Source of the DNA: a virus
DNA length: 64,000 nucleotides
Virus record (IMG/VR): IMGVR_UViG_3300045988_167206
Location: 1 to 64,000 of that record
Reading direction: 5' to 3' (one strand)
The notes under the pieces are model-generated. The model was not told the DNA's origin and searched no databases. It saw nothing but the letters and a program-made list of their open reading frames with translations. Shown piece by piece: positions 3,096-22,170 of the stretch. Made by a program: the position numbers and the translations under genes. How positions within the stretch are numbered: position 1 is the first letter of the stretch; every line of letters starts with the position of its first letter.

Positions 3096-3128
3096 ATAAT
3101 TGAAAGATTGTTTTCATGGGAGGTATTT

Positions 3129-3332: not shown

Positions 3333-3385
3333 ATTAGATGCTTTAGAAATAAATAATAAGTATTTTCAATTAAGAGGTAATATTT

Positions 3386-3586: not shown

Positions 3587-3760
3587 ATATCTGCCAATCC
3601 CGATGATCATAATTTATACCAATTTAGATAGCTCGATTAGAATTGCAATTATAGCAAATTATATAAAAGAAATGGAAGATAAAGGTTTAGTCGGGAACGT
3701 AGTATTTATGACCAGATGAGCAAAATTTAAACTTAAATTCGAAAGGAGAGAAAATACGTT

Positions 3761-3973
3761 ATGTCAAAGAGAAGAAGATGGATGGTAACTTCAACATTTG
3801 TTTGCCCGGAGTGTGATACGGAGATTCCATTACCCCGGGAACATTGTACTCAGCGTGAAAAGGGACATATTAAAGATTTATATTGTCCAAAGTGCAAAAA
3901 GACACAGAAATTTAAAGAGTATACTTACAAAGAGTTTTATAAGACACTGGATGGAGAAGTGATTGGATTATAA
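3761..3973 (+). CDS. Zinc-ribbon protein (70 aa)
   Basis: CPEC..(24 aa)..CPKC four-cysteine ribbon. RBS gAAAGGAGAGaaaatacgtt. Confidence 0.55.
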   Translation: MSKRRRWMVTSTFVCPECDTEIPLPREHCTQREKGHIKDLYCPKCKKTQKFKEYTYKEFYKTLDGEVIGL

Positions 3974-3992
3974 AGAAAGTGTGGTAGAGATA

Positions 3993-4802
3993 ATGAGCGA
4001 AACAAATGAAGTAAAAAACAAACCAAAGTATTATGTTCCTGTGGATAGGGTTATTTCTAGTAGAATACAAAAAAGAATTAATTCTATGACTGATGAAGAA
4101 CGTAATAAAGTCGTTTATTTAGGCGGGATAAACGATGAGGTAACTACAGAGGAAAAAATAATGCATGATTTTTTGGAATTTGTAAAAGAAGAAGAGGAAA
4201 ATTATGCAAAAAGTCCACTGGCAAGAGAATGGAAGTATGAAAAAAAGCAGATGACAAAAGAGGAACGAATATATGATTGCAGTGTTTGGTGGATTAATGA
4301 TCGAATGGTTAGTTCTGGTTTCTGGCATAGTAGCATAGCATTTCCTTTGTTAAGAGAAATTGCTAGTGATTATGACCCCTCTTACCTACATCCAAGAAAT
4401 CACGTAGAAGAATACAACAAAAAATATAGAGATGCACAAAAGGAAGCAAAAGCGAAAGGAAAAACTGGAAAAGCTCTTGAGGGTAAAAAGGTTATGCAAG
4501 ATTATGAGAAAGCTCGAAAACCAGAAACTTCATTATCAGATGATTGGATTAAACATTTTGATGGAATAAGCGATAAATGGTTAAATAAATGGTGTAACTT
4601 TAGTGTTAATTGGGGTTGGGTACTTCCCTGTTTATTCTTGTGTTTATTCGTACAGAAGGGATTAAGCAGCGCGATCGGATTATTGGTGTTTATGGGTGTT
4701 GGAGAATGGTACTCTTGGAAAGCACAAGAATATTGTAGCGTAATTATACCATGGTATCAAAGAGCAGGACTTTTAATTGAAAGGAGATTACTGAGAAAAT
4801 GA
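3993..4802 (+). CDS. Hypothetical protein with hydrophobic C-terminal region
   Basis: ATG at 3993 after gtGGtAGAGataATG (an alternative start at 3963 overlaps the previous gene). C-terminal hydrophobic stretch WGWVLPCLFLCLFV..AIGLLVFMGV. Confidence 0.5.
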   Translation: MSETNEVKNKPKYYVPVDRVISSRIQKRINSMTDEERNKVVYLGGINDEVTTEEKIMHDFLEFVKEEEENYAKSPLAREWKYEKKQMTKEERIYDCSVWWINDRMVSSGFWHSSIAFPLLREIASDYDPSYLHPRNHVEEYNKKYRDAQKEAKAKGKTGKALEGKKVMQDYEKARKPETSLSDDWIKHFDGISDKWLNKWCNFSVNWGWVLPCLFLCLFVQKGLSSAIGLLVFMGVGEWYSWKAQEYCSVIIPWYQRAGLLIERRLLRK

Positions 4803-5782
4803 ATGGAAGATTAGAGCATGAACTTGAAATAAATAATCGTATTGAAAATATGATTTCGGGAATTCCAGAGTCGCAGTTGATAAATGATTTTTATCTGAGT
4901 ATTAAAACATCAAAAACTCCAACTACTTGTTACGATTATATAAAAGTAATACGTAGATTTAAAATGTTTCTAAATAATAAATCTTTTTTAGAAGTGACAG
5001 AAGAAGACGTACAAAGATATCTTGAAGAAAATAATTACAAAACGAATAAAAAAGGAGAAGTAAGAAAAGTCTCTGCACAATATATAAGACAAATCTGCAG
5101 CAGTCTAACTCAATTTTATAATTATTTAGAAAGAAAAAGAATTATTACAGAAAATCCATTGAGATATATTGAAAGACCATCAAGAAGAGATGTAATAGAG
5201 AGGCCAAAAGTAACATTTGATGATCTTGATTGTATTATAGATGCTGCGAAAGAGCAAAATAAATCGTTTAAATGGAGAAGAAAGGATCTTGCAATTCTCT
5301 ATTTACTTATGATAACCGGAATGAGAGAAACTGCATTAACAGAAATTAATGTATCTGATATTGACTGGGAGAATGAAACTCTTACTGTAGTAGATAAACG
5401 TGACAAAGAACAAGTGTATTATTTAAATTACAAACTTAAAAGAGCATTAAATTATTGGCTTCAGAGTAGAAAAGAATTACTTGAAGAAGCGGGTGTCACA
5501 GATATGGATGCGCTTTTCTTTTCTAGAAATTTCCAAAGAATAAGTGCTCAGGAAGTTTATCGAACAGTTAGAAGATGTTCATATAAAGGAATTGGAATTC
5601 GTTTGACTCCTCATCAATTAAGAGCTACATTTGTAACTTTGTATTATGAAAAAACAAAAGATATTGAAGCAACAAGACGGGCTGTTGGTCATGCAAATGT
5701 TGATACAACCGCTTTATATATCAAGAAAAATAATAAGGCAAGAAAAGATGCTATGGATTTCATGAGTGCCGGAATTATGTGA
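4799..5782 (+). CDS. Tyrosine recombinase / integrase (XerC/D-like)
   Basis: Catalytic signature TGMRETAL (Arg I), HQLRATF (H-x-x-R), GHANVDTTALYI (His..Tyr). N-terminal SAM-like core-binding region. ATGA overlap with the upstream gene. Confidence 0.85.
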   Translation: MNGRLEHELEINNRIENMISGIPESQLINDFYLSIKTSKTPTTCYDYIKVIRRFKMFLNNKSFLEVTEEDVQRYLEENNYKTNKKGEVRKVSAQYIRQICSSLTQFYNYLERKRIITENPLRYIERPSRRDVIERPKVTFDDLDCIIDAAKEQNKSFKWRRKDLAILYLLMITGMRETALTEINVSDIDWENETLTVVDKRDKEQVYYLNYKLKRALNYWLQSRKELLEEAGVTDMDALFFSRNFQRISAQEVYRTVRRCSYKGIGIRLTPHQLRATFVTLYYEKTKDIEATRRAVGHANVDTTALYIKKNNKARKDAMDFMSAGIM

Positions 5783-5871: not shown

Positions 5872-7146
5872 ATGTTAATCAATAGGGATATACTTGAAAA
5901 TAAATTACATGAAAAATTTTGGAAGGTAGCTGTTGACACAGAATTCCAACAAAAGATGTTTGATTATGCAAAAAATGAATTTAATATGTCAGAAGAAGTA
6001 TTTTCGGATTTTGTAGCAGACAGAAAAGCATTACAAGAAGCAACGGAATATATGCTTTTTGTAATGCTAAAAAGCTATGAATATGTTAAAGAAACAAAAA
6101 CTTCTGCAATATCTGTTTATTTTAGTCAAAAGGAAATAGACACTTATAGTTTTTCAAAATTCGATAATGCAGATTTTGAATTTCCTATTGTATTTGAAAT
6201 GCTTCAGATTAATGATGATCAATGGATTGGGAAAATTGATGTAAATACATTAGATAAATTAAGAAAACATCAATTAATTAATTATAATCCAGATACACAG
6301 AGAACTATGCAAAAAGTTATTCGGAAAGGAAATGTAAATTATAAAATAACGGTAAACAAAAAAGCAGTTGCAGAAATCGCGGATAGCTTTGAAGAAGGAA
6401 CATATATCTCTGATGAATTAACTTTGAACATTAGACCTGATGATGAGAAAGCAGATTTTTATTATGATTTTAAAAAACGTATGTTGATTATAAATAATAT
6501 AACTGCGTTTGATATAAACGATGGATATCATAGATATTTAGGAATGTTTAGAGAAAAAATGGTTCATCCGGAATTTAACTACACTATGGAATTGAGAATT
6601 ACAAATTTTGATGTAGATAAATCGCAAAGATTTATTTATCAGAAAGATCAAAAAACAAAAATGGCTAAGGTTGATTCTCGAAGTTATAATGTGTATGATC
6701 CCGCTAATATTGTTATAAAAAAAATTAATGAAAGTGCTTCGTGCAATATCAGAGGATTTATTGGACGTAATGAAGCTAAAATTGATATGGGAACATTAAG
6801 CAGGATCATACATTTATTATATTTTAAAAATGTTCCAAAAGCAGAAGAAAGAAAAACAATTATTGAAGTTACAAAGGAGCTTATTGAAGACTTTAATATA
6901 TTAACTGAACAAAATATAGAATTTTTAGAAAAAACGTATTCTGCTTACGAGTTATTATGTATCATGTCTACATTCCACTATTTTAAAGGGAAAGATAATA
7001 AAGAAGATATTGGTGAGATAGTGAAATATTTAACTGATGCAGCTCAGGGTAATTCTGTTAAATTGAATAATAGAAGTGGTATAACTAGAAAAAAGATGGA
7101 ACAGTTAGAAGAAATTATAGAAAGGAGAAATAAAACATATGTATAA
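5872..7146 (+). CDS. Hypothetical protein with DGQHR-like (DndB/ParB-fold) motif
   Basis: The motif FDINDGYHRYLG resembles the DGQHR signature of DndB-type/ParB-like nuclease-fold domains. 8-nt overlap with the next gene. Confidence 0.35.
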   Translation: MLINRDILENKLHEKFWKVAVDTEFQQKMFDYAKNEFNMSEEVFSDFVADRKALQEATEYMLFVMLKSYEYVKETKTSAISVYFSQKEIDTYSFSKFDNADFEFPIVFEMLQINDDQWIGKIDVNTLDKLRKHQLINYNPDTQRTMQKVIRKGNVNYKITVNKKAVAEIADSFEEGTYISDELTLNIRPDDEKADFYYDFKKRMLIINNITAFDINDGYHRYLGMFREKMVHPEFNYTMELRITNFDVDKSQRFIYQKDQKTKMAKVDSRSYNVYDPANIVIKKINESASCNIRGFIGRNEAKIDMGTLSRIIHLLYFKNVPKAEERKTIIEVTKELIEDFNILTEQNIEFLEKTYSAYELLCIMSTFHYFKGKDNKEDIGEIVKYLTDAAQGNSVKLNNRSGITRKKMEQLEEIIERRNKTYV

Positions 7147-8035
7147 CCAGGAACGTAAACAGCGGTACATTAAATATAAAACAAGTAAAACTTCTGTAAA
7201 TAATTTAAACAGTATTTTTAATGCCGCTGAACATTTTGAAGTACAATCAAATAAAGACTTATGTGATTTTACAACTGATGAAATACGTAGGATGTATAAA
7301 TTGTCTAACATTAATTCAATTGATGTTTTAATAAATCGAAATAGTGTATATAAAAATTACACATCCTGGGCGCAAACAGAAGGACTGGTTATAGATAATC
7401 AAAATCATTACAGTGAATTTGATATTAATATGTTAGATTTATACTTAAATAAAAATGCATTAAAACAGACAATCGTTGATCGAGAAACTATTTTTTCATG
7501 GGCAGAGAGAATTGTAAATCCACGAGACGCTTTTGTATTGGTATGTATTTTTGAGTTTGGCAAAGGCGATTATTTTAATGATATTGTTTTGGCTAGAATG
7601 AAAGATATTGATTTAGAAGAGAAAACAATGAAGCTCACTTCCGGTAGAACCGTTAAAATTAGTGATCAATTAATTTATTTTGCAAAGAAAAGCAATGCAG
7701 CCGATTCTATAATTTCAGCGAATTCTGAACGAATTTTGTATGATGACGGAAGCATCATGAAAAGATATGGAAAAGCAAAAGGTACCGTAGATCCATATTA
7801 TTTAGGCAGGGCAGCTTATGCAGCATTGAAAAGAGCATTAGAATTTTTTGGCGTTAAAATATCAGCGACAAATATCATGTATTCTGGTATTATAGATATG
7901 ATAAAAAGAGAAAGTGAAAAATTATCTATTTCTGGTGAAGAATATTTGAAGAAATATTATTCTGATATTGAGTATCAATACGATGTAAAAATTAAACCAA
8001 CTATATTTATGAAAAAATATGGTGATTATATTTAA
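7139..8035 (+). CDS. Degenerate tyrosine-recombinase-fold protein; candidate MrpR/YopR-like repressor
   Basis: The N-terminus MYNQERKQRYIKYK.. and the layout resemble integrase SAM-like plus catalytic folds. However, the Arg-I position reads FGKGD and no HxxR...Y tail is present. Confidence 0.35.
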   Translation: MYNQERKQRYIKYKTSKTSVNNLNSIFNAAEHFEVQSNKDLCDFTTDEIRRMYKLSNINSIDVLINRNSVYKNYTSWAQTEGLVIDNQNHYSEFDINMLDLYLNKNALKQTIVDRETIFSWAERIVNPRDAFVLVCIFEFGKGDYFNDIVLARMKDIDLEEKTMKLTSGRTVKISDQLIYFAKKSNAADSIISANSERILYDDGSIMKRYGKAKGTVDPYYLGRAAYAALKRALEFFGVKISATNIMYSGIIDMIKRESEKLSISGEEYLKKYYSDIEYQYDVKIKPTIFMKKYGDYI

Positions 8036-8385: not shown

Positions 8386-10392
8386 ATGAAAAAAACGAAT
8401 GAGATGAAAGATCTTATTAAGAGATTAAATGTATATAGAGATGCTTATTATAATAGGTCGGAAAGCTTGATCTCTGATAAAGAATATGATCGAATGTTTG
8501 ATCGATTGATAGAACTGGAAAAAGAGACTGGTATTATTATGAGTAACTCTCCTACACAGAATATAGGATACGAAGTAAAAAGTGAGCTGCCTAAAATAAA
8601 ACATAGTCATTTGATGATGTCTTTGGACAAAACAAAAGATTATCATGAGCTGGTTGAATTTATAAATAATCACGGATGCATTCTGATGAATAAGATGGAC
8701 GGGCTGACTATTGGATTGACATATGAAAATGGTAAATTGATTAAAGCCGAAACTCGTGGAAATGGTGTTATAGGGGAAGATATTACTCATAATGCAAAAG
8801 TATTTGAGAATATTCCTTTGAATATTGAATGTATGCAGCATATGGAGTTTGAAGGTGAGGCTGTTATCACTTATGACGATCTTGAAAAGATTAATGCTAA
8901 AATAAAAGATCCGGATAAAAAATATAAAAATCCAAGAAACCTTGCTTCGGGATCAGCAAGACAGTTTGATAGTAAAATTGCAAAGGAAAGACATCTTAAG
9001 TTTGTTTTATGGAAAGTTCCGGCAGGGATGGAGAATGAAAATAGTTTCCTCGATCGCTTAGAAGACGCAAAGCAATTAGGTTTTGATATTGTCCCATATG
9101 TATATGTAGAAAAAAATACCACGGCAGAGCAGATAGAAAAGGTCATTGAATATTTAAAGGAGAAAGCAGAAGAATTATCATATCCTATTGATGGAATGGT
9201 GATTACTTATGATGATATCAATTATGGTATATCTCTTGGTATTACAGATCGATATCCAAAATATTCTCTTGCATTTAAGTTTAAAGATGATGAGTATGAT
9301 ACTGTTTTAATTGATATTGATTGGACTATTGGTAAAAGCGGGCAGCTTACGCCTACAGCAGTATTTGAGCCGGTTAAAATTGACGGAACGGAAGTTTCCA
9401 GGGCGAGCCTGCATAATGTAAGCATCTTTAAAGATCTGCAGTTACATCAGGGTGATACTGTTACTGTGTATAAGGCAAATCAGATCATCCCACAGATTGC
9501 AGAGAACCTGACTAGAGGATCTGAAGGTGGATATAAGTTTGAGGTTCCAGAAAAATGTAATTATTGTGGTGAACCTGCGGTGATTATTAAGGAAAATGAA
9601 TCAGAAGTGTTAACATGCATAAATGCTCAATGCGAAGGAAAACTTTTAGGAGAGTTATGTGCATTTGTAGGTAAGAAAGCGCATGATATAAAAGGTTTAT
9701 CTGAAGCTACGCTGTCATTAATGGTTCATACTAGAATGGTTAAATCACCAATTGATTTGTTTTCTTTATCAAACGAACGAAAAAAATTATCATATTTTCC
9801 AAGAATGGGAGCTAAGAAGGTAGACAATATCCTTAAGGCAATTGAAGACTGTCGAAATACAACATTAGAGAAATTTATTGTAGGACTGAATATTCCGCTG
9901 ATCGGAAGTCGTGCTGCCAAGGATATTGCAAAGCATGAAGAAATGAGAGCAAGAGAAAACGGAGAGAAATATTCTGTTACTCAGTTTGTTGCAGATGCAA
10001 ATAATAATTACGATTTTACATGTATTGAAGGATTGGGATCAGAACGAAATGATTTTATTCATAGGTATTTTAGAGAAAATGTTAGATATGTAATTGATCT
10101 TGCAGGAGAATTTAAATTTCCTGAAATAAATCTGGAAACAGAAAGTGTTTCAGCTGCAGCATCTTTAGAAGGGAAGAAATTCTGTATTACAGGGAAACTG
10201 CAGAAGTTTGCGAATCGAGATGCTCTTGTGGCCGATATTGAATCAAAGGGAGGTAAAGTTGTATCTGGAGTCACTAAGGCAACAGACTATTTGATTACGA
10301 ATGATAAAACAAGTGGATCAAGTAAAAATAAGAAAGCGGCAGATCTTGGAATACCCGTAATTACAGAAAAAGAGTATCTTGAAATAAAATAA
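8386..10392 (+). CDS. ligA: NAD+-dependent DNA ligase
   Basis: Adenylation motif NKMDG (KxDG), Cys4 zinc finger CNYCG..CINAQC, HhH region, and a C-terminal BRCT-like domain (GKKFCITGKL..GGKV..SVTKATDYL). 668 aa. Confidence 0.95.
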   Translation: MKKTNEMKDLIKRLNVYRDAYYNRSESLISDKEYDRMFDRLIELEKETGIIMSNSPTQNIGYEVKSELPKIKHSHLMMSLDKTKDYHELVEFINNHGCILMNKMDGLTIGLTYENGKLIKAETRGNGVIGEDITHNAKVFENIPLNIECMQHMEFEGEAVITYDDLEKINAKIKDPDKKYKNPRNLASGSARQFDSKIAKERHLKFVLWKVPAGMENENSFLDRLEDAKQLGFDIVPYVYVEKNTTAEQIEKVIEYLKEKAEELSYPIDGMVITYDDINYGISLGITDRYPKYSLAFKFKDDEYDTVLIDIDWTIGKSGQLTPTAVFEPVKIDGTEVSRASLHNVSIFKDLQLHQGDTVTVYKANQIIPQIAENLTRGSEGGYKFEVPEKCNYCGEPAVIIKENESEVLTCINAQCEGKLLGELCAFVGKKAHDIKGLSEATLSLMVHTRMVKSPIDLFSLSNERKKLSYFPRMGAKKVDNILKAIEDCRNTTLEKFIVGLNIPLIGSRAAKDIAKHEEMRARENGEKYSVTQFVADANNNYDFTCIEGLGSERNDFIHRYFRENVRYVIDLAGEFKFPEINLETESVSAAASLEGKKFCITGKLQKFANRDALVADIESKGGKVVSGVTKATDYLITNDKTSGSSKNKKAADLGIPVITEKEYLEIK

Positions 10393-10413: not shown

Positions 10414-10442
10414 TTGACATATAAGGAAATATAATGTATAGT
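10414..10442 (+). promoter_or_regulatory. Sigma-A (sigma-70) type promoter
   Basis: TTGACA-17 nt-TATAGT. Confidence 0.65.
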
Positions 10443-11147: not shown

Positions 11148-13220
11148 ATGAGATTTGAAGAATTCAACAAAAAGCTGCAGAAACATTTTTCTGAAATGGT
11201 AAAAGGATCAGAGAGATTATTTGAAGTAGATTTTGATTATGAGGAGATGAATAATCTTTATCTTAACTCTTTCCCGGCAGGAACAAATGAAGTTTATCGT
11301 AAAAGAAGAGAGTATGATTGTAGTTGCTGCAGACATTTCATTAGAGACATCGGAAATGTCGTAGCCATTAAAAATGGGCAGCTGCATACACTTTGGGAAT
11401 TAAATCTCAATGATGAAGTATTCTCTATAGTAGCTAAAGCTCTTGACGAATATATTCGTGAAAAAGCTGTAAAAGGTGTGTACCTTAGAAAAGAGAAAAG
11501 AATTGGAACACAGTTTAGTAGAGAAATGCTTCCGACTGGTGAGGTTAATCGATACGATCATTACTTTATTGATCTTCCAGAAATTTGTATTTATGAAGAA
11601 AGTTGGAATACTACACTAGACGGAGAAAAAGGAAAGTTCAGAGATACAAGAAATGTGTTTAAACGTTCTCTTGATGAAATTGATTCTGAAGCTGTAGACA
11701 CTGTTCTTGAACTGATCAGCCAGAATTCATTGTATAAAGGTGCCGAATGGAAAGCGGTTTTACAGGAATTTAAAAAGTACCAGAAGGAATATAATAAACT
11801 TTCTCCAGAAGAAAAAGAACTTTGGACCTGGGAAAAATCGATTAGTGCCGGTATGTCAGTAGGCCGTATTAGAAATCATAGCATGGGAACATTACTTGTT
11901 AATCTTTCTGAAGGAATGGAGCTTGATACAGCAGTAAAGAAATATGAGCAGATTGTAGCCCCGGCAAATTATAAGAGACCGAAAGCAATCTTTACAAAGA
12001 AAATGCTTGAAGATGCAAAGAAAACTATTACAGAGCTTGGTTATATGGATGCTCTTCAGAGAAGATTTGCTACTCTTGATGACATCACAGTAAATAATAT
12101 CTTATTCTCAAATAAAGATGCTGCAAAGAGAATTACGGGTGCAGATGATCTGTTTGGAGAGATGGAAAAAGATGTTGCGATTAATCCTAAGAAATTCTCC
12201 AAGGTAGAAGAAATCAGTGTAAGAGATTTCATTAACAATGTTCTCCCTACAGCAAAAGAGCTTGAAGTATTCTTTGAGAATAAGCATGAGAAAAACATGG
12301 TATCACTTATTGCTCCGGAAAACAAAGAAGCAAAGACGATGTTCAAATGGAACAATCCATTTTCTTGGGCTTATACAGGAAATATTACAGATTCTGATAT
12401 TAAAGAAAATGTAAAGGCTGCTGGTGGATCTGTAACTGGTGTACTTAGATTTTCTATTCAGTGGAATGATGGAGGAAAAGATAATTCAGATCTTGATGCT
12501 CATTGCATTGAGCCAAATGGAACAGAAATTTATTATGCAACATTTAAAAAGCCACTAATGACTAATATGGGTGGCCAGCTTGATATTGATATAATGGAAC
12601 CGTTCGCACAGTGTGCGAATTCAAATGGAGTTGCGGTCGAAAATATCACATATGCTACAAAATCAAAAATGAAACCTGGCAGATATAAATTCTTTGTAAA
12701 TCAGTTTTGTTCAAGAGGATCAAAAGGATTTAAAGCTGAAGTTGAAGTAGATGGTGAAATTCACTCTTATGAATATGATCAGCCGGTACGAGGAGATGTT
12801 CATGTTGCTGAGGTAATTATGGATGATGATGGAAACTTTAAAGTTATTGATAGACTTAATGGAAATAGTGTAATGACAAGCAAAGAGGTTTGGAATGTTA
12901 AAACAAACCAGTTTATGCCGGTATCTGTTGTATGCTATTCTCCAAACTATTGGGACGAGCAGAAGGGAATTGGACATCAGCATTTGTTCTTTATGCTTAA
13001 AGATTGTGTGAATCCGGAAGAGCCAAATGGATACTACAATGAATTCCTTAAACCGGAACTTGAGCAGCACAAAAGAGTATTCGAAGCACTTGGTGCAAAG
13101 GCACATGTAAAAGATGTAGATGATCAGCTTTCTGGCATTGGATTTAGTCTAACTAAGAGAAATGATCTGATTGTTAAAGTCAAAGGTGCAACTGAAAGGG
13201 TATTGAAGATTAAATTTTAA
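11148..13220 (+). CDS. Large hypothetical protein (690 aa) with N-terminal Cys cluster and DUF2135-like C-terminal beta-sandwich
   Basis: RBS aAAAGGAGAtaaaagaa. N-terminal CSCCRH cluster. The C-terminal segment LRFSIQWNDGG.DNSDLDAHCIEPNGTEIYY....GGQLDIDI..PGRYKFFVNQF resembles the YfaP/DUF2135 pattern. Confidence 0.5.
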   Translation: MRFEEFNKKLQKHFSEMVKGSERLFEVDFDYEEMNNLYLNSFPAGTNEVYRKRREYDCSCCRHFIRDIGNVVAIKNGQLHTLWELNLNDEVFSIVAKALDEYIREKAVKGVYLRKEKRIGTQFSREMLPTGEVNRYDHYFIDLPEICIYEESWNTTLDGEKGKFRDTRNVFKRSLDEIDSEAVDTVLELISQNSLYKGAEWKAVLQEFKKYQKEYNKLSPEEKELWTWEKSISAGMSVGRIRNHSMGTLLVNLSEGMELDTAVKKYEQIVAPANYKRPKAIFTKKMLEDAKKTITELGYMDALQRRFATLDDITVNNILFSNKDAAKRITGADDLFGEMEKDVAINPKKFSKVEEISVRDFINNVLPTAKELEVFFENKHEKNMVSLIAPENKEAKTMFKWNNPFSWAYTGNITDSDIKENVKAAGGSVTGVLRFSIQWNDGGKDNSDLDAHCIEPNGTEIYYATFKKPLMTNMGGQLDIDIMEPFAQCANSNGVAVENITYATKSKMKPGRYKFFVNQFCSRGSKGFKAEVEVDGEIHSYEYDQPVRGDVHVAEVIMDDDGNFKVIDRLNGNSVMTSKEVWNVKTNQFMPVSVVCYSPNYWDEQKGIGHQHLFFMLKDCVNPEEPNGYYNEFLKPELEQHKRVFEALGAKAHVKDVDDQLSGIGFSLTKRNDLIVKVKGATERVLKIKF

Positions 13221-13657: not shown

Positions 13658-16282
13658 ATGAACGGATTGAGTAGTAAAGAAGTTTCTCAGAGTAGGGCTT
13701 TATATGGGAGCAATAAGCTCCCTGAGCCTAAAATGAAGAAATGGTATCATTTTGCAAAGGAAGCATTAACAGAGTCAATTACAATGATTCTTATTGCGAT
13801 TGCAGTATTTCAGATAATTCTTGGAGTTATTGGCGTAGCAGAAATTTCTGAACCAATTATGATTCTTGTGGTACTTTCAATTGTAACAGGAATTGCAATT
13901 AAAACAGGTCTTGGTGTACAGAAATCAGCGGCAGAATTAAAAGCGAAAACATCTCTTAGGTACTGTGATGTAATTCGAGATGGAAAATTACAGACAATTA
14001 ATAAAGATGATCTTGTAGTTGGTGATATTGTAATCATTAGAACTGGTCAGGAAATATTCGCTGATGGATATATTGTTGAAGGAAAAATTTCTGTAAACAA
14101 TGCAGCTATTAATGGAGAATCAAAGGAATGCAAAAAGACTCCGATTGATGGATATAAACATGTAAAAACTACATCAACAGATGCATATACAAATCAGAAC
14201 TGCTTATTTGCCGGCACCACTGTAATGTCTGGAGAAGGTAAGATGATTGTAACGGAAGTTGGTGTTAATACAGTAAATGGTGATACTCTTGTAAAGATGC
14301 AGACACTTGAAGCACCTAAAACAGCACTTGATATTGCTCTTGATAATCTGTGTGATTTTATTTCTAAATGGGGAACAATTGCAGCAGTATTAGCATTTGT
14401 GATCATGACAGTTTCTGGAATTATGCAGGCCGGTGGTATGTCTCAGTATTTCAATGGAGGTATCCTTGAAAATATCCAGAAGATTGCTACTAATTTCTCA
14501 ATTGCATTGACTATTATTGTTGCAGCTGTTCCGGAAGGATTACCGCTTATTGTAAAACTGGTAACGAAACAGAATGTAAGTACAATGGAAAAATTTAATA
14601 TCCTTGCTAAGAATCCAGGAAAAATTCCGGAGCTTGCATATGTAAATCTTATTTGTACTGATAAAACAGGGACACTTACAACAGGTATTATGACACCAAA
14701 AGTAATGGTGAATGGTGCTTGCGAAGATATTATGAATGATAAAGATTCTGTTGCTGCAGGTCTTATTAAGAATAATGTATGTTTAAATAATAGTGCTGAT
14801 TATGATGCTGACGGAAATATTACTGGTGGTAACTCAATTGATAGAGCAGTATTAGGATTATATTCAAATGGAAATTGTAGAATCGTTAAAGAATCATTTG
14901 CAGTAAAAAATAGACTTCCTTTTAGTAGCGAGAATAAGTATTCTGCTATAGAAGTTGCTAGTTTAACAGCTGATGCACAGATGACTTTATATAAAGGTGC
15001 TCCTGAAAAACTTATTCAGAGATGCTCTTACTACATTGCAAACAGTGGAGAAGTAAAACAGTTTACAGATTCTGATAGAAAAGCAATGGAAAGTTATATT
15101 AAAGGACTTACAGAAAAAGCAATGAGATGTATTGCTCTTACAATGTCTGATTTCTTTAAGGAAGACGAACTTCCGAAAGATATGACATTACTTGGAGTAA
15201 TCGGTGTTGTTGATCCACTTAGAGAAGAAGTTCCAGATGCTGTAAAGACTGCAAATGAAGCGGGGATCCAGGTAATTGAGATTACTGGTGATTGTCTTGA
15301 AACAGCAAAAGCAGTAGCAGCAGAAGCTGGTATTTATCATCCTTGGGATAAGGCAATTACAAATGATGAATTTGAAGCTATGTCAGATAACGAAGTAAAA
15401 GAAATCATTCCTAAATTAAGAGTTATTTCCAGATGTTCACCTAATACAAAACTTAGATTAGTAACTCTTGCTCAGGAAATTGGAATGTCTGTTGCTATGA
15501 CAGGCGATGGTGTTAATGATTCCCCAGCATTAAAGAAAGCTGATGTAGGATTTGGAATGGAATCTGGATCTGATGTTGCGAAAGAAGCAAGTGATATTAT
15601 TTTTACAGATAATAACTTTGCATCAACTGTAAAAGCAACGGAACTTGGTAGAACATTTATGCACAATATTATGATGTTCCTTGAGTTTCAGCTGCCAATT
15701 AACATTTCATTACTTATCTTAAGTATGATTTATCCGGTAATTTCTGGTGGAGCTGCGTTACTTGCATCAGTACAGATTCTGATTGTGAATATTATCATGG
15801 ACTCTCTCAACTCACTGAGTTTTGGTGGTGAGCCTCCAAAAGCGGAATATATGAAAGAAAAACCAATTAAAAAGGGATCTGGATTATTTATTCGTGGTGC
15901 TAAAAAGCGAATTGCTTTATCAACAATCGTATTTATTGTTTTGTTTGGTGCGATTACATATGGTCCAATTGCGGCGATATTTGCTACACCAGAACTGGCT
16001 ATTACAGCAAGATTTGCATTACTTTGTTTTATGGCTGTATTTAATGGATTTACAATTAGAACGGAAAGTATGAATCTTTTCAATGGCCTTGGTAAGAATA
16101 AAGCTTTTTCAGTAATTGCTGTTGGAATTATGATTATGACACTGCTCTTATGTAATATTGCAGGAAGTCTTGTTCAGACAACACCACTTGATTTAAAACA
16201 TTGGATTGTAGTGATTATTGTGGCATTTATGATTGTACCTGTTGATATTATTAGAAAAGGAATTAAAAAGATTAAAAAATAA
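13658..16282 (+). CDS. P-type (P2, Ca2+-type) cation-transporting ATPase
   Basis: Phosphorylation site CTDKTGTLT, actuator-like NGES, TM4 motif PEGLP, and hinge motifs TGD and MTGDGVNDSPALKKADVG. About 10 predicted TM helices. 874 aa. RBS AAAGGAGAGaaacaa. Confidence 0.9.
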   Translation: MNGLSSKEVSQSRALYGSNKLPEPKMKKWYHFAKEALTESITMILIAIAVFQIILGVIGVAEISEPIMILVVLSIVTGIAIKTGLGVQKSAAELKAKTSLRYCDVIRDGKLQTINKDDLVVGDIVIIRTGQEIFADGYIVEGKISVNNAAINGESKECKKTPIDGYKHVKTTSTDAYTNQNCLFAGTTVMSGEGKMIVTEVGVNTVNGDTLVKMQTLEAPKTALDIALDNLCDFISKWGTIAAVLAFVIMTVSGIMQAGGMSQYFNGGILENIQKIATNFSIALTIIVAAVPEGLPLIVKLVTKQNVSTMEKFNILAKNPGKIPELAYVNLICTDKTGTLTTGIMTPKVMVNGACEDIMNDKDSVAAGLIKNNVCLNNSADYDADGNITGGNSIDRAVLGLYSNGNCRIVKESFAVKNRLPFSSENKYSAIEVASLTADAQMTLYKGAPEKLIQRCSYYIANSGEVKQFTDSDRKAMESYIKGLTEKAMRCIALTMSDFFKEDELPKDMTLLGVIGVVDPLREEVPDAVKTANEAGIQVIEITGDCLETAKAVAAEAGIYHPWDKAITNDEFEAMSDNEVKEIIPKLRVISRCSPNTKLRLVTLAQEIGMSVAMTGDGVNDSPALKKADVGFGMESGSDVAKEASDIIFTDNNFASTVKATELGRTFMHNIMMFLEFQLPINISLLILSMIYPVISGGAALLASVQILIVNIIMDSLNSLSFGGEPPKAEYMKEKPIKKGSGLFIRGAKKRIALSTIVFIVLFGAITYGPIAAIFATPELAITARFALLCFMAVFNGFTIRTESMNLFNGLGKNKAFSVIAVGIMIMTLLLCNIAGSLVQTTPLDLKHWIVVIIVAFMIVPVDIIRKGIKKIKK

Positions 16283-16295
16283 AGGAGATTTTGAA

Positions 16296-17084
16296 ATGGG
16301 ACTGTTTAATAAACTTTTTGGAAATAAAGAGAAATCAGATGCTGTAGTCACACAGCAGCCATTTACAGGAGTAAAAGAAAGTACTCCTGTAATGACACTG
16401 AATTCATCTGCTGCGGCTGTAATTGATATGTCAAAATCAAAAGAAAACCTTAATACTGTTTTAATTGATATGTCAAAGGGAAGCAAAATTGACATGACAA
16501 AGCATGTTGCCAGGGTAGCACTTGCTATGGATTATTCTGGATCTATGGATCGTTTATTTGATAACGGGTCTGTACAGAAAACAATTTCAAGATTACTTCC
16601 TATTGCACTTAAATTTGATGATAATGGTGAGCTGGAATCCTGGTTATTCTCCACTGATTATAAACGTCTTGATGCTGTTACAGAAAAGAACTATGAAAAT
16701 TATGTAAAAAGAGTAATGCAGAGATCTGGAATGTATATGGGAGGTACATATTACGAACCGGTTTTAAGCGATATGGTTAATTATTATAAAAACATTGAAC
16801 CAAGCGAAATTCCAGCATTTATAATTTTTATTACTGACGGAGAGAATATGGATAAGAGTAATACAAACCGTATTATTCGAGAGTTATCTGAGTATAATAT
16901 TTTTGTTCAGTTTATTGGAATCGGAGATGAAGATTTTGATTATTTGAAATCACTTGATAAGCTTGAAGGAAGAAAGCATGACAATACTGGATTTACAGCT
17001 GTAAAAGATATGAATAAACTTGATGACCAGCAGCTTTATACGGAAATTCTTCGTCAGTATAAAGACTGGTTAAATAAGAAATGA
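16296..17084 (+). CDS. vWA-domain protein (TerF-C / TerY-like)
   Basis: MIDAS motif LAMDYSGSMD, with downstream FITDGEN. The start was moved to ATG 16296 (RBS AAAGGAGattttgaa) because the track start at 16233 lies inside the ATPase gene. Confidence 0.7.
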   Translation: MGLFNKLFGNKEKSDAVVTQQPFTGVKESTPVMTLNSSAAAVIDMSKSKENLNTVLIDMSKGSKIDMTKHVARVALAMDYSGSMDRLFDNGSVQKTISRLLPIALKFDDNGELESWLFSTDYKRLDAVTEKNYENYVKRVMQRSGMYMGGTYYEPVLSDMVNYYKNIEPSEIPAFIIFITDGENMDKSNTNRIIRELSEYNIFVQFIGIGDEDFDYLKSLDKLEGRKHDNTGFTAVKDMNKLDDQQLYTEILRQYKDWLNKK

Positions 17085-17135
17085 ATTGAAATGCATATAG
17101 TATATTGTTAAATAATTGTAAAAGGAGAACGAATA

Positions 17136-17774
17136 ATGGCAGTAATTAATATGAGTAAAAACCAGAAAATTAGTATGACAAAGGAAGATGGATCCGCAGT
17201 AAAGACTTTCTTTATTGGGGTTAATTGGGAAGAAAATAGATATGCAGGAGAGTCTGATATTGACTTTGATATTAATGGATTCATTACAAATTCTGATAGA
17301 AAAGTAATCTTTCCACAAGATGTTATTAATTATGCTACATATGGAAATGGATCTGATTATCCTTGGATTGAGTATTCTGGAGATAATAGAACCGGTGATG
17401 ATGCAGAAGGAATTACATTTAATGGAAAACATTTTGATGAATATTTTATTATTCATGCTGATACTTTCCCTACTGATCGAACTGATTTTACTATTTGCCT
17501 TACAATTTTCAGAGCTATTCAGAGAAAACAGAATTTTGGTATGGTTAGAAATGCTACGATGACTATTTGTGATTATGATAATCCGAATGGAGATAAGTAT
17601 GAGTTTGATCTTTCTGAGGATGAAAATTTTGAAAATCTGAATGCAGTTGAAATGGGTAGACTGTATAAATACGGAAATGGATTTAAGTTTCAGGCTCTTG
17701 GTACTGGTTATATGGGTGGAATGACAGAACTGTTTAAAAACTTTGGACTTGATATTGACGAAGGGAGAGATTGA
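17136..17774 (+). CDS. TerD-family (tellurite-resistance/Ca-binding) domain protein
   Basis: N-terminal L.KGQK..L-type opening (INMSKNQKISMTK), FFIGVNWE, and the Ca-binding signature GDNRTGDDAEG. Confidence 0.75.
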   Translation: MAVINMSKNQKISMTKEDGSAVKTFFIGVNWEENRYAGESDIDFDINGFITNSDRKVIFPQDVINYATYGNGSDYPWIEYSGDNRTGDDAEGITFNGKHFDEYFIIHADTFPTDRTDFTICLTIFRAIQRKQNFGMVRNATMTICDYDNPNGDKYEFDLSEDENFENLNAVEMGRLYKYGNGFKFQALGTGYMGGMTELFKNFGLDIDEGRD

Positions 17775-17777
17775 TTT

Positions 17778-18521
17778 ATGAATCTTACAGCAGGAGCAGT
17801 AATTGTTATTGCAGCGATTGTAATTGTTGGTATTTTAATCTTTTGTACTAAATCTGGAAAGCGTGTCAGACTGAGAATGTCTGGCACAGCTGACGAAGCG
17901 ATTTCAAAAGATGCATCTACCCCAGAAGGAGCAAAAGCATATTATAATGTTGCAATCGAAAAGAAACAGAATGATTATAGTGCAGCAAATAATCTGTTAA
18001 AACAAATTGAAGGTAAAAAGGCAGGATTTGAAGATCAGCTTCATCAGTTACAGAAAGATAGATTTGATTGTGTAGAAAAGCTCAATCAGTGTATTGATTC
18101 AAACAATGATGAAGGTGCAAAGCTTTACATTAAAGAACAGCAGAATATTGATGATAAAGTAAAAACTTTAAAAGCTGCGATTAAGGATCTTGAGAAAAAT
18201 GAACAGCTTCAGAAAGAAACTGTTGAATCATTAGAAGCAGAGTTAAATGATCTTAAGGCCGAAAAGGATAATGCTGTATTTACATTATCTACAGCACAGG
18301 TTACACAGTCACTTCAGGCGAACCCAGGAGCATCTTCAGCAGAAGAAGATAAAATGCTTGAAAAAGTTCGTGACGGGATTCAGAAGAAAAAAGAAGAAGC
18401 CGATGGAAATAGAATTATGTATGAGAATTCTACATATGTTCAGAAGCAGCGTCTTGAAAAGAAAATGAAGGATGATGAAGTTGATAGAAAACTGCAGGAA
18501 CTTAAGGCAAAGAGGAAATAA
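17778..18521 (+). CDS. Membrane-anchored coiled-coil protein, PspA/IM30-like
   Basis: N-terminal TM helix (AGAVIVIAAIVIVGILIF) followed by about 200 aa of heptad-rich sequence. The layout resembles PspA/LiaH (central ..DEGAKLYIKEQQ.., ELNDLKAEKDNA..). Assignment is tentative. Confidence 0.4.
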   Translation: MNLTAGAVIVIAAIVIVGILIFCTKSGKRVRLRMSGTADEAISKDASTPEGAKAYYNVAIEKKQNDYSAANNLLKQIEGKKAGFEDQLHQLQKDRFDCVEKLNQCIDSNNDEGAKLYIKEQQNIDDKVKTLKAAIKDLEKNEQLQKETVESLEAELNDLKAEKDNAVFTLSTAQVTQSLQANPGASSAEEDKMLEKVRDGIQKKKEEADGNRIMYENSTYVQKQRLEKKMKDDEVDRKLQELKAKRK

Positions 18522-18522
18522 T

Positions 18523-18606
18523 ATGATTACAATGAATCCAGGTATATTTATATTATGTCTTGCTGTCTTTATGACAGCAGGATTTATCTTAGGAAGGATG
18601 GAATAA
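18523..18606 (+). CDS. Possible 27-aa hydrophobic peptide
   Basis: ATG at 18523 encodes MITMNPGIFILCLAVFMTAGFILGRME. It fills the gap between neighbouring genes. Too short to be sure. Confidence 0.2.
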   Translation: MITMNPGIFILCLAVFMTAGFILGRME

Positions 18607-18608
18607 TT

Positions 18609-19121
18609 ATGTTACTTAAAGATGTTTTAGATTATTTTATGTTATATGAAAACTATAAAGATAAGGAAAAGGAAGAAAAAGAGATGCTTACTATTAAGGA
18701 TTTAAAAGTTGGAGATAAACTTAAGGTTAAAGGCGATAATATTATTTTAATTATTCGGTATATTGATCTGGAGAATAGATATATCCTTGTAAGTTTTGGA
18801 AGTGGAGAACCATATCTTATTCGAGATACCACATTAAGATTTTATGAAAAATACAAGGAATGTAAGAAATTAGAATGGACCGAGTGGAAAAAAGGAGTTA
18901 CTGTATATACAAATCCATTTAATGAAATGAAGGTAGGTCTTAATTATGAAATTAGGAATAATGGAAAGCGTGTGCAGGTTCGATCTGGATCTACAAAGGC
19001 TTTTGCGTCCTGTGATGAAACTAAGGGAGATAAATTTGATTATAAATTCGGAAAAAATCTTGCATTAAATAGGCTTATTATTAAGAGAATTGCTGAAGGA
19101 TTGGAATCTTCTGTAAAATAA
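18609..19121 (+). CDS. Hypothetical protein
   Basis: ATG at 18609 after RBS tAGGAAGGAtggaataatt. Confidence 0.5.
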   Translation: MLLKDVLDYFMLYENYKDKEKEEKEMLTIKDLKVGDKLKVKGDNIILIIRYIDLENRYILVSFGSGEPYLIRDTTLRFYEKYKECKKLEWTEWKKGVTVYTNPFNEMKVGLNYEIRNNGKRVQVRSGSTKAFASCDETKGDKFDYKFGKNLALNRLIIKRIAEGLESSVK

Positions 19122-20330: not shown

Positions 20331-20404
20331 TGGGGTGTCGCCAAGAGGTAAGGCACAGCACTTTGACTGCTGCATTTTCGTGGGTTCGAATCCCACCACC
20401 TCAG
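20331..20404 (+). tRNA. tRNA-Gln (anticodon UUG)
   Basis: Hand-folded cloverleaf. Acceptor TGGGGTG/CACCTCA (U1-A72, as in E. coli tRNA-Gln), D arm GCC-AAGAGGTAA-GGC, anticodon arm CAGCA-CTTTGAC-TGCTG, T arm GTGGG-TTCGAAT-CCCAC. The variable region is about 2 nt longer than usual. Confidence 0.8.
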
Positions 20405-20431
20405 TTTAAACAAAATAAAAGGAGAAAAGAA

Positions 20432-21535
20432 ATGAAAATAATTAATTCAGGTAGTAGATATGAAATTTATGGAGATGATCTTAAAACACTTGATAAACTT
20501 CCAGCGCAGTTTTATTCTGTTGAATTTCATAAAATGATGGGATTCTTTCTTGATAAACATGCTGATATAGAAATTAAGGAAAGTAAAATCTATGGCGTAC
20601 ATATGAGCAAGGTTAAAAAAGTATTAAGAGCATTTCCTGAATTCGAAAGAAATCTTGGCGTGATTTTATCAGGTAATAAGGGAATTGGGAAATCATTATT
20701 CGCAAAAGAACTTGCGATTGAGTCTGTTAAAGTTGGATATCCAGTAATCATTGTTGATAGATATATTCCTGGTATTGCTGATTTTATTGAAAGTATTGAA
20801 CAGGAAGTAGTGATTTTATTCGATGAATTTGATAAAACATTTGGAGGAGTTAAAAAAGGAGACGGGATGATTGATCCACAAGATGAGATGCTTACATTGT
20901 TTGATGGTATTTCATGTGGAAAGAAAATGTTTGTGATTACATGTAATCGGATTAATAGTCTAAATGATTATCTTGTTAATCGACCAGGAAGATTCCATTA
21001 TCATTTTAGATTTGAATATCCTACTCCGGATGAAATTACAGAATATCTGAAAGATAAAATTGATGAAAAATATTATGAAGAGATTAGGGGAGTTATCGCA
21101 TTTTCACGAAAAGTCAATTTAAATTATGATTGTTTACGTGCGATTGCTTATGAACTAAATAATGGCGAGCCATTTAAAAATGCCATCAAGGATCTGAATA
21201 TTATTAATATGGATGATGTCAGATATGATGCTACAATTGTCATGGATGATGGTTCTACAGATATTGACTCTAGATGTATGGATTTGTTTGATAAAAATAA
21301 TGAGATTAGTTTAGATTTTATAGTACATAATGTATATTTTGAAGCAAACTTTAAAGTTTCAGCTTGTAAATTTGATATGGAAAAATGTATCAATATTGTA
21401 AATGGTGAGGATATTAAATTGAATATTGACAAGCATGACTTGGAAGAATTTAAGAAAAAAGGAAAAGAATTTCCAAAACCGAAATACATTACATTAACAC
21501 GTAAGGTTGATAAAAAACTGCATTATACTTTATAA
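20432..21535 (+). CDS. AAA+ ATPase (classical clade)
   Basis: Walker A GNKGIGKS, Walker B VILFDEFD, second region of homology NRPGRFHYHF. The start was moved to ATG 20432 (RBS AAAAGGAGAAAAG) because the track start overlaps tRNA-Gln. Confidence 0.75.
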   Translation: MKIINSGSRYEIYGDDLKTLDKLPAQFYSVEFHKMMGFFLDKHADIEIKESKIYGVHMSKVKKVLRAFPEFERNLGVILSGNKGIGKSLFAKELAIESVKVGYPVIIVDRYIPGIADFIESIEQEVVILFDEFDKTFGGVKKGDGMIDPQDEMLTLFDGISCGKKMFVITCNRINSLNDYLVNRPGRFHYHFRFEYPTPDEITEYLKDKIDEKYYEEIRGVIAFSRKVNLNYDCLRAIAYELNNGEPFKNAIKDLNIINMDDVRYDATIVMDDGSTDIDSRCMDLFDKNNEISLDFIVHNVYFEANFKVSACKFDMEKCINIVNGEDIKLNIDKHDLEEFKKKGKEFPKPKYITLTRKVDKKLHYTL

Positions 21536-21538
21536 TTA

Positions 21539-21557
21539 AATAATGTAAAATTTGACA
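21539..21557 (+). promoter_or_regulatory. Recurrent 19-nt element, copy 9
   Basis: aataatgtaaaatttgaca, 45 nt before tRNA-Leu. Confidence 0.75.
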
Positions 21558-21583
21558 AGCGTTCAAATTAAAACGAATGCTTG

Positions 21584-21664
21584 AGCGGATATGACGGAAT
21601 GGCAGACGTAGAAGACTCAAACTCTTCGGAAGAAATTCATGTGGGTTCGAATCCCATTATCCGC
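21584..21664 (+). tRNA. tRNA-Leu (anticodon CAA), type II
   Basis: Acceptor GCGGATA/TATCCGC, D arm ACG-GAATGGCAGA-CGT, anticodon arm GAAGA-CTCAAAC-TCTTC, long variable arm (GAA-GAAA-TTC), T arm GTGGG-TTCGAAT-CCCAT. Confidence 0.8.
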
Positions 21665-22097
21665 ATCAGGCAGATATATTGTGAAGAGTATGCTGGAGGC
21701 CAAGGCATTGACATAATAATTTGACCTGAAGGTTATAACCTATAAGCACTTCACGGCTTTGAGCGTGAACCATTATTGAAACTATTATTAAATCGAATTG
21801 AAATTGTTATGTTTGTACTGGAGCCTGTCGATGTTATAGGAAGACACAGTGTATTGGTTGTATGGTTTGGATACACAACACATTTATATAGATGATTGAT
21901 TATGATGAGGGAGAATTTGGAAGTGGTGAGGATAGTTATAAGAAGTAGCTGTGTAGTTGTAATCAATCGAAAATTATATCTTTCGTGGAGATTTCTGTAG
22001 TGAGGTAAGCGATTAAGCTAAATCAGTAGGTGATACGAAGCGGTAAGTTGGAAGATATTTACGGCATTGTGGTTGTGTGTAGCTGCAGAAATCAAAA
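21665..22097 (+). ncRNA. ORF-poor spacer between tRNAs; candidate structured RNA
   Basis: About 430 nt with no convincing ORF or RBS, and G-richer than the flanks. Local hairpins are present (AGGTTATAACCT; TTCACG..CGTGAA; GTGTAT..ATACAC), plus a 9-bp long-range complement GATTGATTA (21894-21902) / TAATCAATC (21960-21968). Confidence 0.3.
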
Positions 22098-22170
22098 GGG
22101 AACTTAGTTCAGCGGTTAGAGCAATCGCCTCATAAGCGATAAGTCCTGGGTTCGAATCCCAGAGTTCCCA
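22098..22170 (+). tRNA. tRNA with CAU anticodon (elongator Met or lysidine-Ile)
   Basis: Acceptor GGGAACT/AGTTCCC, D arm GTTC-AGCGGTTA-GAGC, anticodon arm ATCGC-CTCATAA-GCGAT, T arm CTGGG-TTCGAAT-CCCAG. It has a G1-C72 pair and lacks the initiator GGG/CCC stem, so it is not an initiator. Confidence 0.85.

Follow-up and report, generated by a model that had tools for sequence, protein, structure and literature searches.

A four-gene block encoding P-type ATPase, vWA-TerF-like, TerD and PspA-like proteins in a large phage, probably of gut Clostridia

The stretch of viral DNA analysed here, hereafter the window, comprises the 64,000 nucleotides at positions 1 to 64,000 of IMG/VR virus record IMGVR_UViG_3300045988_167206, and carries four consecutive genes whose predicted products are a P-type ATPase, a protein with a von Willebrand factor type A (vWA) domain of the TerF-like kind, a TerD-domain protein and a protein resembling PspA/IM30 of the ESCRT-III superfamily. 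A first-pass annotation, made from the sequence alone, had described these genes as co-linear and tightly spaced, and the four open reading frames (ORFs) were indeed recovered in the same orientation, with intergenic gaps of 13, 51 and 3 nt. The block and the signals associated with it are as follows:

13658..16282, + strand: P-type ATPase, PMCA-type (P2B-like), 874 aa, with about ten transmembrane (TM) segments
16296..17084, + strand: vWA-TerF-like protein, 262 aa, predicted cytosolic, with the metal-ion-dependent adhesion site (MIDAS) DYSGS...T...D
17136..17774, + strand: TerD-domain protein, 212 aa, predicted cytosolic, with a partly canonical Ca2+ loop
17778..18521, + strand: PspA/IM30 (ESCRT-III superfamily)-like protein, 247 aa, with an N-terminal TM helix
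18557..18583, + strand: terminator-like hairpin with an 11-bp stem, 36 nt past the stop codon of the PspA-like gene; weak T-tail, tentative
10414..10442, + strand: promoter-like site TTGACA-17-TATAGT, 11/12 matches, in the intergenic gap between the ligase gene and g203; tentative

Each gene is preceded by a strong Shine-Dalgarno sequence: AAAGGAG stands before the ATG codons at 13658, 16296 and 17136, and GAAGGGAG before ATG 17778 of the PspA-like gene. The vWA gene starts at ATG 16296, the TTG at 16233 that opens its ORF not being used. Similarly, the ORF after the block (18555-19121) probably starts at ATG 18609, served by the Shine-Dalgarno sequence GGAAGGATGG, rather than at 18555, and the hairpin at 18557-18583 is for this reason placed between genes. 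Because the gaps measure only 3-51 nt, each gene has its own ribosome-binding site and a hairpin lies past the last gene, the block is read as an operon; to judge from these features and from the relatives described below, the four genes are inherited as a unit and almost certainly expressed together.

The annotation had further placed the block between two host-type promoters, in the manner of a moron or accessory island. Both promoter-like sites exist, the second at 19149, but the 68 such sites found across the region are no more than the 69.7 expected from shuffled sequence, so that the assignment at 10414 is tentative; this site, moreover, lies upstream of three other conserved phage genes (10489-13640) and possibly marks the start of a transcription unit that includes them. 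The island picture itself is weak. A compositional island was rejected, as the GC content of the block (0.32-0.36) falls inside the range of the whole window (0.25-0.38), and the unit that moves among relatives is a cassette within the block rather than the four genes together. PHROG families already exist for all four proteins.

Family assignments of the four proteins

The ATPase matches the Pfam families E1-E2_ATPase (1e-33), Cation_ATPase_C (6e-30) and Cation_ATPase_N (5e-10), as well as Hydrolase and Cation_ATPase, and its best matches among solved structures are plant ACA8 (4e-101) and Listeria LMCA1 (6e-91). The best NCBIfam model is the PMCA-type TIGR01517, with 501.4 bits against a cutoff of 507.05; the same model gives 515.4 bits for a phage relative (L032), 486.5 for a host homologue (L094) and 546-608 for the huge-phage ATPases considered below, and leads other NCBIfam models by about 100 bits in every ATPase scored, the PMR1-type Ca2+ ATPase model being second for the window protein. 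In agreement with the earlier description of a full-length enzyme with intact DKTGT, PEGLP and GDGVND motifs, the protein has about ten hydrophobic segments, all three motifs are present and conserved in 97 homologues, and the ATPase is full length in these homologues rather than decayed. DKTGT, KGAPE, TGD and GDGVND are found in the window ATPase and in no fewer than 85 of the 86 homologues linked to a module. Segments AVPEGLPLI (TM4 Glu), FQLPINISLL (TM5 Asn) and LIVNIIMDSL (TM6 Asn...Asp) align with their counterparts in ACA8 and LMCA1, and catalytic and ion-site residues are conserved across the 97 homologues. Every member of the clade, whether from a phage or from a host chromosome, has NGES or NGET instead of TGES as its A-domain motif, with the catalytic Glu retained. 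The catalytic core and the ion-site residues suggest a cation-exporting pump of the single-site Ca2+ type, for which Ca2+ is the likely substrate.

Chromosomal homologues 64-67% identical to this ATPase were found in Ruminococcus metagenome-assembled genome (MAG) contigs of 260-285 kb, where they adjoin housekeeping genes (DnaD/DnaI-like, isopropylmalate synthase and a CDF transporter) and have no TerD, vWA or PspA gene near them. Because such close homologues stand among housekeeping genes without the module partners, a clostridial host is the probable source from which the phage captured its gene; identity to the chromosomal ATPases of Ruminococcus/Oscillospiraceae is about 65%. Among GenBank phages, megablast with the block returned no match, and tblastn with the ATPase returned mostly host-contaminated "phage" fragments at identities of 32% or less.

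The vWA protein matches PF10138 (vWA-TerF-like; 1e-59, 202.6 bits against a cutoff of 29.4) and also Pfam Copine (9e-9). Its MIDAS sequence DYSGS recurs in 35/36 relatives, consistent with the earlier assignment to an intact-MIDAS vWA of the Ter type, and GGTYYE and ITDGEN are legible in the translation. The N-terminus, MGLFNKLFG, is conserved among relatives as MG(L/F)xxKLFG; no TM segment is predicted, and a PDB sequence search with this protein gave no match at E 0.01 or better.

The TerD protein matches PF02342 (1e-32, 113.6 bits against a cutoff of 25.3), and its residues 4-206 align to the solved TerD structures 3IBZ (2.6e-21) and 2KXT (2.1e-20). The canonical TerD Ca2+-binding loop, reportedly known from the Klebsiella TerD structure, is a 13-residue motif, GDN(R/L)TG(E/A)GDGDDE. 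In the window protein GDNRTGD is canonical and is followed by an 8-residue insertion and then by GKHFDE in place of GDGDDE; the TerD assignment of the first-pass annotation accordingly stands, but the Ca-binding signature that it reported is canonical in its first half only. In those relatives that carry three TerD paralogues the full motif is present (for example, GDNRTGEGDGDDE).

Least certain of the four assignments is that of the PspA-like protein, which scores 28.0 bits on PF04012 (E 2e-6), under the threshold of 33.9. The alignment is nevertheless in register, residues 53-245 pairing with positions 25-217 of the 220-position model, and while the PspA-like homologue from loci with three TerD genes scores 25.7 bits, many database homologues have a precomputed PF04012 match, and a homologue on a fecal contig (L105), tied in by the family hidden Markov model (HMM) at 3.9e-39, clears the threshold with 42.3 bits. 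The stretch of that contig covered, about 9.7 kb, has no TerD gene. When the family profile was compared with the PDB, the top matches were Vipp1/PspA. Consistent with this result, the AlphaFold2 model contains a helical hairpin (49-107 and 111-180, pLDDT >90), Vipp1, PspA and archaeal CdvB fill Foldseek ranks 1-19, and E. coli PspA 1-144 (4WHE) superposes on the model with a TM-score of 0.75 and a root-mean-square deviation of 2.0 A. One N-terminal TM helix (approximately residues 5-23) takes the place of the amphipathic helix alpha0, which is not present, and because a K/R-rich stretch comes after it, the predicted location of the helical domain is the cytoplasm. The protein is a divergent member of the PspA/ESCRT-III superfamily, as the description of a membrane-anchored PspA-like coiled coil had anticipated, and with it all four family assignments held under profile and Foldseek searches. 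No PspB, PspC, PspF, LiaI, LiaF or Toastrack domain was found in the neighbouring genes.

Members of this TM-anchored family occur in other settings as well. In Bacillus phage G (L104, region 2693-5696), gene product gp247 is a homologue (family HMM 1.7e-32) that comes after the ABC-transporter permease/ATPase genes gp243 and gp245, and is thus another transporter-adjacent PspA-like gene; gp246, directly upstream of gp247, was considered as a TerD candidate and rejected, having no detectable domain. Just downstream of the PspA-like gene lie a LemA gene and a gene for a 254-aa protein of unknown family in L101 (10846-12154), and a gene for a Band_7 (flotillin-like) protein in L184 (15356-16318).

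Conservation, cassette exchange and recurrence

A scan of IMG/VR with the ATPase as probe yielded at least 149 viral contigs, 80 of which were kept, each with a full-length ATPase. The full module is present in 76 of approximately 86 related loci, most of the others being interrupted by contig ends, and it occurs in two layouts: ATPase-vWA-TerD-PspA-like, as in the window (36 complete loci), and ATPase-small two-TM ORF-TerD x3-PspA-like (40 complete loci), six of the loci counted coming from records of bacterial genomes and MAGs. The PspA-like protein of the TerD x3 layout is only about 33% identical to that of the window. In the reverse direction, 50 loci found from the PspA-like gene comprised 44 with the full four-gene order, one of the TerD x3 type, three that reach contig ends and two that are disrupted; the ATPase is present in 45 of the 47 loci free of contig-end truncation. 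A single variant of the PspA-like gene accounts for 1644 indexed collection blocks, with the same context in all four of the places listed. The four-gene linkage is not due to chance, and the genes co-occur and stay co-linear rather than being randomly distributed among relatives.

Within this linkage, one part of the module moves. Loci L052 (TerD x3 layout) and L078 (vWA layout) are 96.5% identical over the 10.5 kb that end at the ATPase stop codon, and identity returns at 97% from the stop codon of the PspA-like gene, whereas the intervening DNA is non-homologous and encodes TerD x3 and PspA_B in L052 and vWA, TerD and PspA_A in L078. The two cassettes can thus stand in for each other beside the same pump, and the mobile unit is the TerD/vWA plus PspA-like cassette, not the whole four-gene block. 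Likewise, both architectures are interleaved in a neighbour-joining tree of the ATPase, which was midpoint-rooted, carries no resampling support and serves only to show this interleaving. Each TerD/vWA set moves with its own type of PspA-like gene, as would be expected of co-adapted, interacting proteins.

Purifying selection acts on each of the four genes, the median dN/dS values being 0.13 for the ATPase, 0.10 for the vWA protein, 0.065 for TerD, which is the most constrained, and 0.20 for the PspA-like protein; the values are approximate because dS is near saturation (about 1.7). Individual damaged copies were also seen: the ATPase is split into 318 + 518 aa in L185 (5758-8279) and carries an insert of about 1.5 kb in L198 (1007-5276), an IS110 element lies between the ATPase and vWA genes in L186 (7008-8174), a deletion fuses the C-terminal part of the ATPase to the PspA-like gene in L203 (6033-7741), the middle TerD is broken in L068 (11189-11799), and TerD2, TerD3 and the PspA-like gene are lost in L034.

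The small two-TM ORF is a further element of many relatives, although it is absent from the window. It encodes 63-67 aa, is conserved and adjoins the ATPase gene, which it precedes in some of the vWA-type loci and follows in the TerD x3-type loci (examples are L008 5122-5313 and L032 10618-10821). It is reminiscent both of the small gene that Jug phages transcribe together with their ATPase and of small regulators of P-type pumps.

Association of TerD with a pump of this kind extends beyond the immediate relatives. On a 4.5-kb fecal contig from a phage collection, three TerD genes come after the gene for a distant ATPase (34% identity), and when this ATPase was used as a probe, 13 huge-phage contigs, mostly of 214-355 kb, were recovered in which two to four TerD genes lie directly upstream or downstream of a PMCA-type ATPase that is about 35% identical to that of the window. 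TerD genes are present in only 32 of 50,697 GenBank phage records. As the adjacency recurs in differing orders and both genes are rare, selection for linkage of TerD to the pump is indicated. The Herelleviridae phages LysYB1 (Lysinibacillus) and YungSlug (Bacillus) have a TerD-x-TerD-TerC arrangement. P-type ATPases were considered as products of the 857-aa genes that precede TerD in these two phages, and were rejected, since the one scanned (that of LysYB1) has no Pfam match and tblastn with the ATPase gave no Bacillus or Lysinibacillus phage record.

Interpretation and alternatives

Taken together, the explanation that we prefer, at a probability of roughly 0.55, is that the four genes are co-expressed as a single accessory operon and serve a large, probably temperate phage of gut Clostridia as a Ter-like, Ca2+-linked module for membrane protection. 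The term Ter-like is used here rather than Ter, because the module has no TerC, TerB or TelA neighbours: no Pfam match to any of the three was found within about 8 kb. In this explanation the host-captured PMCA-type pump would export cytoplasmic Ca2+, and possibly Mn2+ as well; the cytosolic TerD and MIDAS-bearing vWA proteins would bind divalent cations and serve, on the cytoplasmic side of the membrane, as a sensor, a buffer or an adaptor; and the TM-anchored PspA/ESCRT-III-like protein would stabilise or repair the membrane. The net effect would be a low cytosolic Ca2+ level and a sealed, energised membrane during infection or lysogeny, with candidate stresses in the gut including Ca2+, bile and bacteriocins as well as lesions caused by superinfecting phages or by pore-forming abortive-infection effectors. 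The arrangement parallels the Ter/yceCDEFGH type of architecture, except that the P-type ATPase stands in the position of TerC and the PspA-like protein in that of TelA. A role in Ca2+ or cation homeostasis and membrane integrity, as first proposed from the sequence, is the most economical reading of the evidence, and it is within that reading that we infer Ca2+ as the substrate, the sensor and repair roles and the biological benefit.

Several observations weigh against this explanation. The ATPase falls 5.6 bits under the TIGR01517 cutoff and has NGES for TGES, and ion specificity is not readable from sequence; the second half of the Ca2+ loop is degenerate in the window TerD; and the PspA-like protein is under its Pfam threshold and has no helix alpha0. 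The three-way link is specific to one lineage, as no PspA-like gene was found within 7 kb of the ATPase-TerD loci of huge phages. PADLOC gives no known defence system for the four proteins, and since some natural copies are disrupted (by IS110, a split ATPase or a deletion), phage viability does not depend on the module.

The alternatives differ in how much of the block they account for. A bolder mechanism, and a tentative one, would be a viral Ca2+-triggered repair of the ESCRT-III type, in which TerD and/or the copine-like vWA protein sense Ca2+ influx through a membrane lesion and recruit or activate the membrane-anchored PspA homologue there while the pump clears the Ca2+; the pairing of each cassette with a matched PspA-like type is what this mechanism would lead one to expect if the TerD/vWA and PspA-like proteins physically interact. 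Prophage-encoded superinfection exclusion or anti-phage defence of the Ter type, whereby an altered membrane and cation state blocks DNA injection or infection by rival phages, is a possibility that we hold with considerable doubt. The same use was suggested for the Ter operons of jumbo phages in the 2021 review by Iyer et al. (PMC7824862), and ter operons have been implicated in phage inhibition and colicin resistance (PMC8123226); the phage appears temperate, and fast swapping of cassettes between near-identical phages is typical of conflict genes. However, PADLOC gives no match for these proteins, there is no TerY-P kinase or phosphatase, TerB, TerC or metabolite-synthesis gene nearby, and dN/dS is low rather than diversifying. 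In any case, exclusion of this kind overlaps the membrane-protection module rather than excluding it.

It is unlikely that the ATPase acts on its own, as an auxiliary gene of host origin that would reset host Ca2+ for the benefit of phage replication in the way proposed for Jug phages, with the TerD, vWA and PspA-like genes being unrelated stress genes gathered at an accessory hot spot. Such independence would suit a pump that was captured from a host and whose neighbouring cassette swaps independently of it, and the Jug-phage ATPase is paired with a small upstream gene rather than with TerD (PMC12880540). It is difficult to reconcile, however, with ATPase-TerD adjacency in at least three arrangements and in two ATPase lineages about 35% identical, with the rarity of TerD among phages, with the presence of the ATPase in nearly all untruncated PspA-like loci and with the operon-like spacing of the genes. 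Rather improbable, too, is a role in metal delivery, in which the pump would export Mn2+ or Ca2+ to secreted or membrane enzymes, as TerC does, and TerD and the vWA protein would be cytosolic metallochaperones. PMR1-type pumps, whose NCBIfam model ranks second for the ATPase, carry Mn2+ too, and TerD is paired with TerC in known phages. TerC proteins are membrane proteins of metal transport and metalation and metalate Mn-requiring exoenzymes (PMC12096827). Yet the ion-site residues fit single-site Ca2+ pumps, the operon has no obvious client enzyme and the PspA-like partner is left unexplained. PspA-family proteins are known to maintain the proton-motive force under membrane stress, and the large genome presumably entails a long replication programme, such that the PspA-like protein and the pump could be imagined to hold the membrane potential against premature holin triggering and so to lengthen the latent period; this control of lysis timing is nonetheless very improbable, given that the module lies about 40 kb from the endolysin gene, that no holin or antiholin is adjacent and that the need for TerD and the vWA protein would go unexplained.

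The membrane-protection module, if correctly identified, bears on the function of TerD proteins. TerD and other Ter proteins, which occur widely and bind Ca2+, have been associated with resistance to tellurite, colicins and phages. The repeated joining of TerD to a Ca2+ pump, and in one large lineage to an ESCRT-III-like protein also, is strong evidence for a place of TerD in Ca2+-coupled membrane physiology, and the module offers a compact three- or four-gene system with which to test TerD function. It is very common in gut metagenomes and may affect the fitness of Lachnospiraceae lysogens under bile, bacteriocin or phage attack. Were repair the true role, the module would constitute a phage or bacterial counterpart of eukaryotic Ca2+/ALG-2/ESCRT-III repair and would give TerD a biochemical role.

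The phage and its relation to known systems

The remainder of the window encodes a DnaE-type polymerase, a RecD-like helicase, ribonucleotide reductase, nicotinamide phosphoribosyltransferase, an endolysin and an NAD-dependent ligase, together with three tRNAs (Gln, Leu, Met) and three tyrosine recombinases:

4799-5782 and 7139-8035: two tyrosine recombinases, one of the two MrpR-like
56097-57269: Tn916-type integrase, with a strand switch after the gene at about 57.3-58.3 kb
58945-60684: endolysin

The polymerase is nearest, at 44%, to those of the large C. difficile phages LIBA6276 and LIBA2945. A 499-kb scaffold of Ruminococcus sp. AM36-2AA, an isolate, carries the full syntenic phage block, which is also embedded in a 3.69-Mb and in an 885-kb contig, and one PspA-like homologue carries the organism name Blautia faecis. 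Because integrases are present and relatives are embedded in contigs of 0.5-3.7 Mb, the phage looks temperate, in keeping with the lysogeny that the first-pass annotation had envisaged; it is probably a large temperate phage of gut Clostridia of the Lachnospiraceae/Ruminococcus type.

Several neighbouring genes merit mention in their own right. The upstream gene at 11148-13220 encodes a 690-aa protein of phrog_1735 (DUF8224 in relatives), which shares 58% identity with proteins from Bastille-like phages of Bacillus; it is conserved in 546 GenBank phage records from very diverse hosts, and the gene, upstream of the module in the window, lies downstream of it in some relatives. A tRNA cluster (Gln, Leu, Met; 20331-22170) flanks a gene for an AAA+ ATPase of phrog_2376 (20432-21535) with weak similarity to nSTAND3 and to PADLOC PDC-S73, which probably starts at ATG 20432, since the listed TTG start at 20327 overlaps the tRNA-Gln gene. 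Nicotinamide phosphoribosyltransferase (50266-51732; PHROG 2.5e-159) and the NAD-dependent DNA ligase (8386-10392) could possibly serve NAD+ salvage or counter-defence.

Phage-borne pumps of this class have recently been described: Ca2+-translocating P-type ATPases were reported in huge gut phages, including Jug, and in four phages of 159-197 kb (Sci Adv 2026, PMC12880540), the phage enzymes being closest to counterparts in Bacteroidaceae or Bacillota. According to the same study, which also cites the Ca2+-ATPase of a chlorella virus, the three terD genes of Jug phages are highly transcribed, one of them standing beside a pspA-like gene, while their ATPase, also highly transcribed, lies apart from the terD loci in an operon with a small gene of 77-91 aa. 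A full-text literature search for a link among TerD, calcium, PspA and the membrane returned this Jug work and otherwise unrelated papers, and the text of a comparative-genomics survey of the phage-shock-protein system (PMC11237479) makes no mention of P-type, calcium or vWA. The earlier statement that no phage module of this kind is known must be narrowed accordingly: phage Ca2+-ATPases, Ter modules and the terD-pspA-like pair are published, and the parts of the module and two of its pairwise links are thus already known or noted in passing, whereas no description appears to exist of ATPase, TerD(/vWA) and PspA-like genes as one contiguous operon that is inherited together, of the two forms in which its cassette can be swapped or of how prevalent it is among Clostridia phages. 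The present findings extend phage Ca2+-ATPases from huge Bacteroides phages to Clostridia phages of approximately 100-250 kb, and supply candidate partners for the pump.

Compared with these systems, the module resembles Jug and other huge gut phages in its host-derived, phage-borne Ca2+-type P-type ATPase and in the presence of terD, one copy by a pspA-like gene in Jug, but differs in that its ATPase, TerD(/vWA) and PspA-like genes are contiguous and co-inherited and in that its hosts are Clostridia rather than Bacteroides. With the single-site Ca2+ pumps LMCA1, ACA8/PMCA and that of chlorella virus, the ATPase shares domain order, catalytic motifs, the TM4 Glu and the TM6 Asn/Asp, and it is 30-35% identical to the solved members; unlike them, it has the NGES variant and, within its 874 aa, no calmodulin-binding autoinhibitory extension.

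Ter operons (terZABCDEF, yceCDEFGH and the LysYB1/YungSlug blocks) also feature tandem TerD and/or a TerF-type vWA, and likewise bring a membrane cation transporter and a helical partner that associates with the membrane into a single co-oriented block; B. subtilis yceCDEFGH, for instance, comprises three TerD paralogues, TerC and TelA. The module, in contrast, is without TerC, TerB, TelA and nucleoside-metabolite genes, its transporter is a PMCA-type P-type ATPase and its helical partner is a TM-anchored PspA/ESCRT-III-like protein. That partner shares with PspA, Vipp1 (IM30) and ESCRT-III proteins the helical hairpin fold and in-register Pfam and profile matches, but has a true TM helix for alpha0 and is without a PspB/C/F, LiaI/F or Toastrack partner. 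The TerY-P triad, a candidate defence system made up of the vWA protein TerY, a PP2C phosphatase and a Ser/Thr kinase, is matched in its TerF/TerY-type vWA domain with MIDAS, whereas the flanks of the module have no kinase or PP2C phosphatase domains by Pfam and there is no PADLOC match. Finally, in eukaryotes, Ca2+-triggered repair of the plasma membrane by ESCRT-III involves ALG-2, annexins and copines plus PMCA. The sensors of the module are not homologous to ALG-2 and there is no Vps4-type ATPase, but as a functional analogy the likeness extends to each of its putative parts: a Ca2+-binding sensor, a copine-like vWA protein, a polymer of the ESCRT-III family and a Ca2+ extrusion pump.

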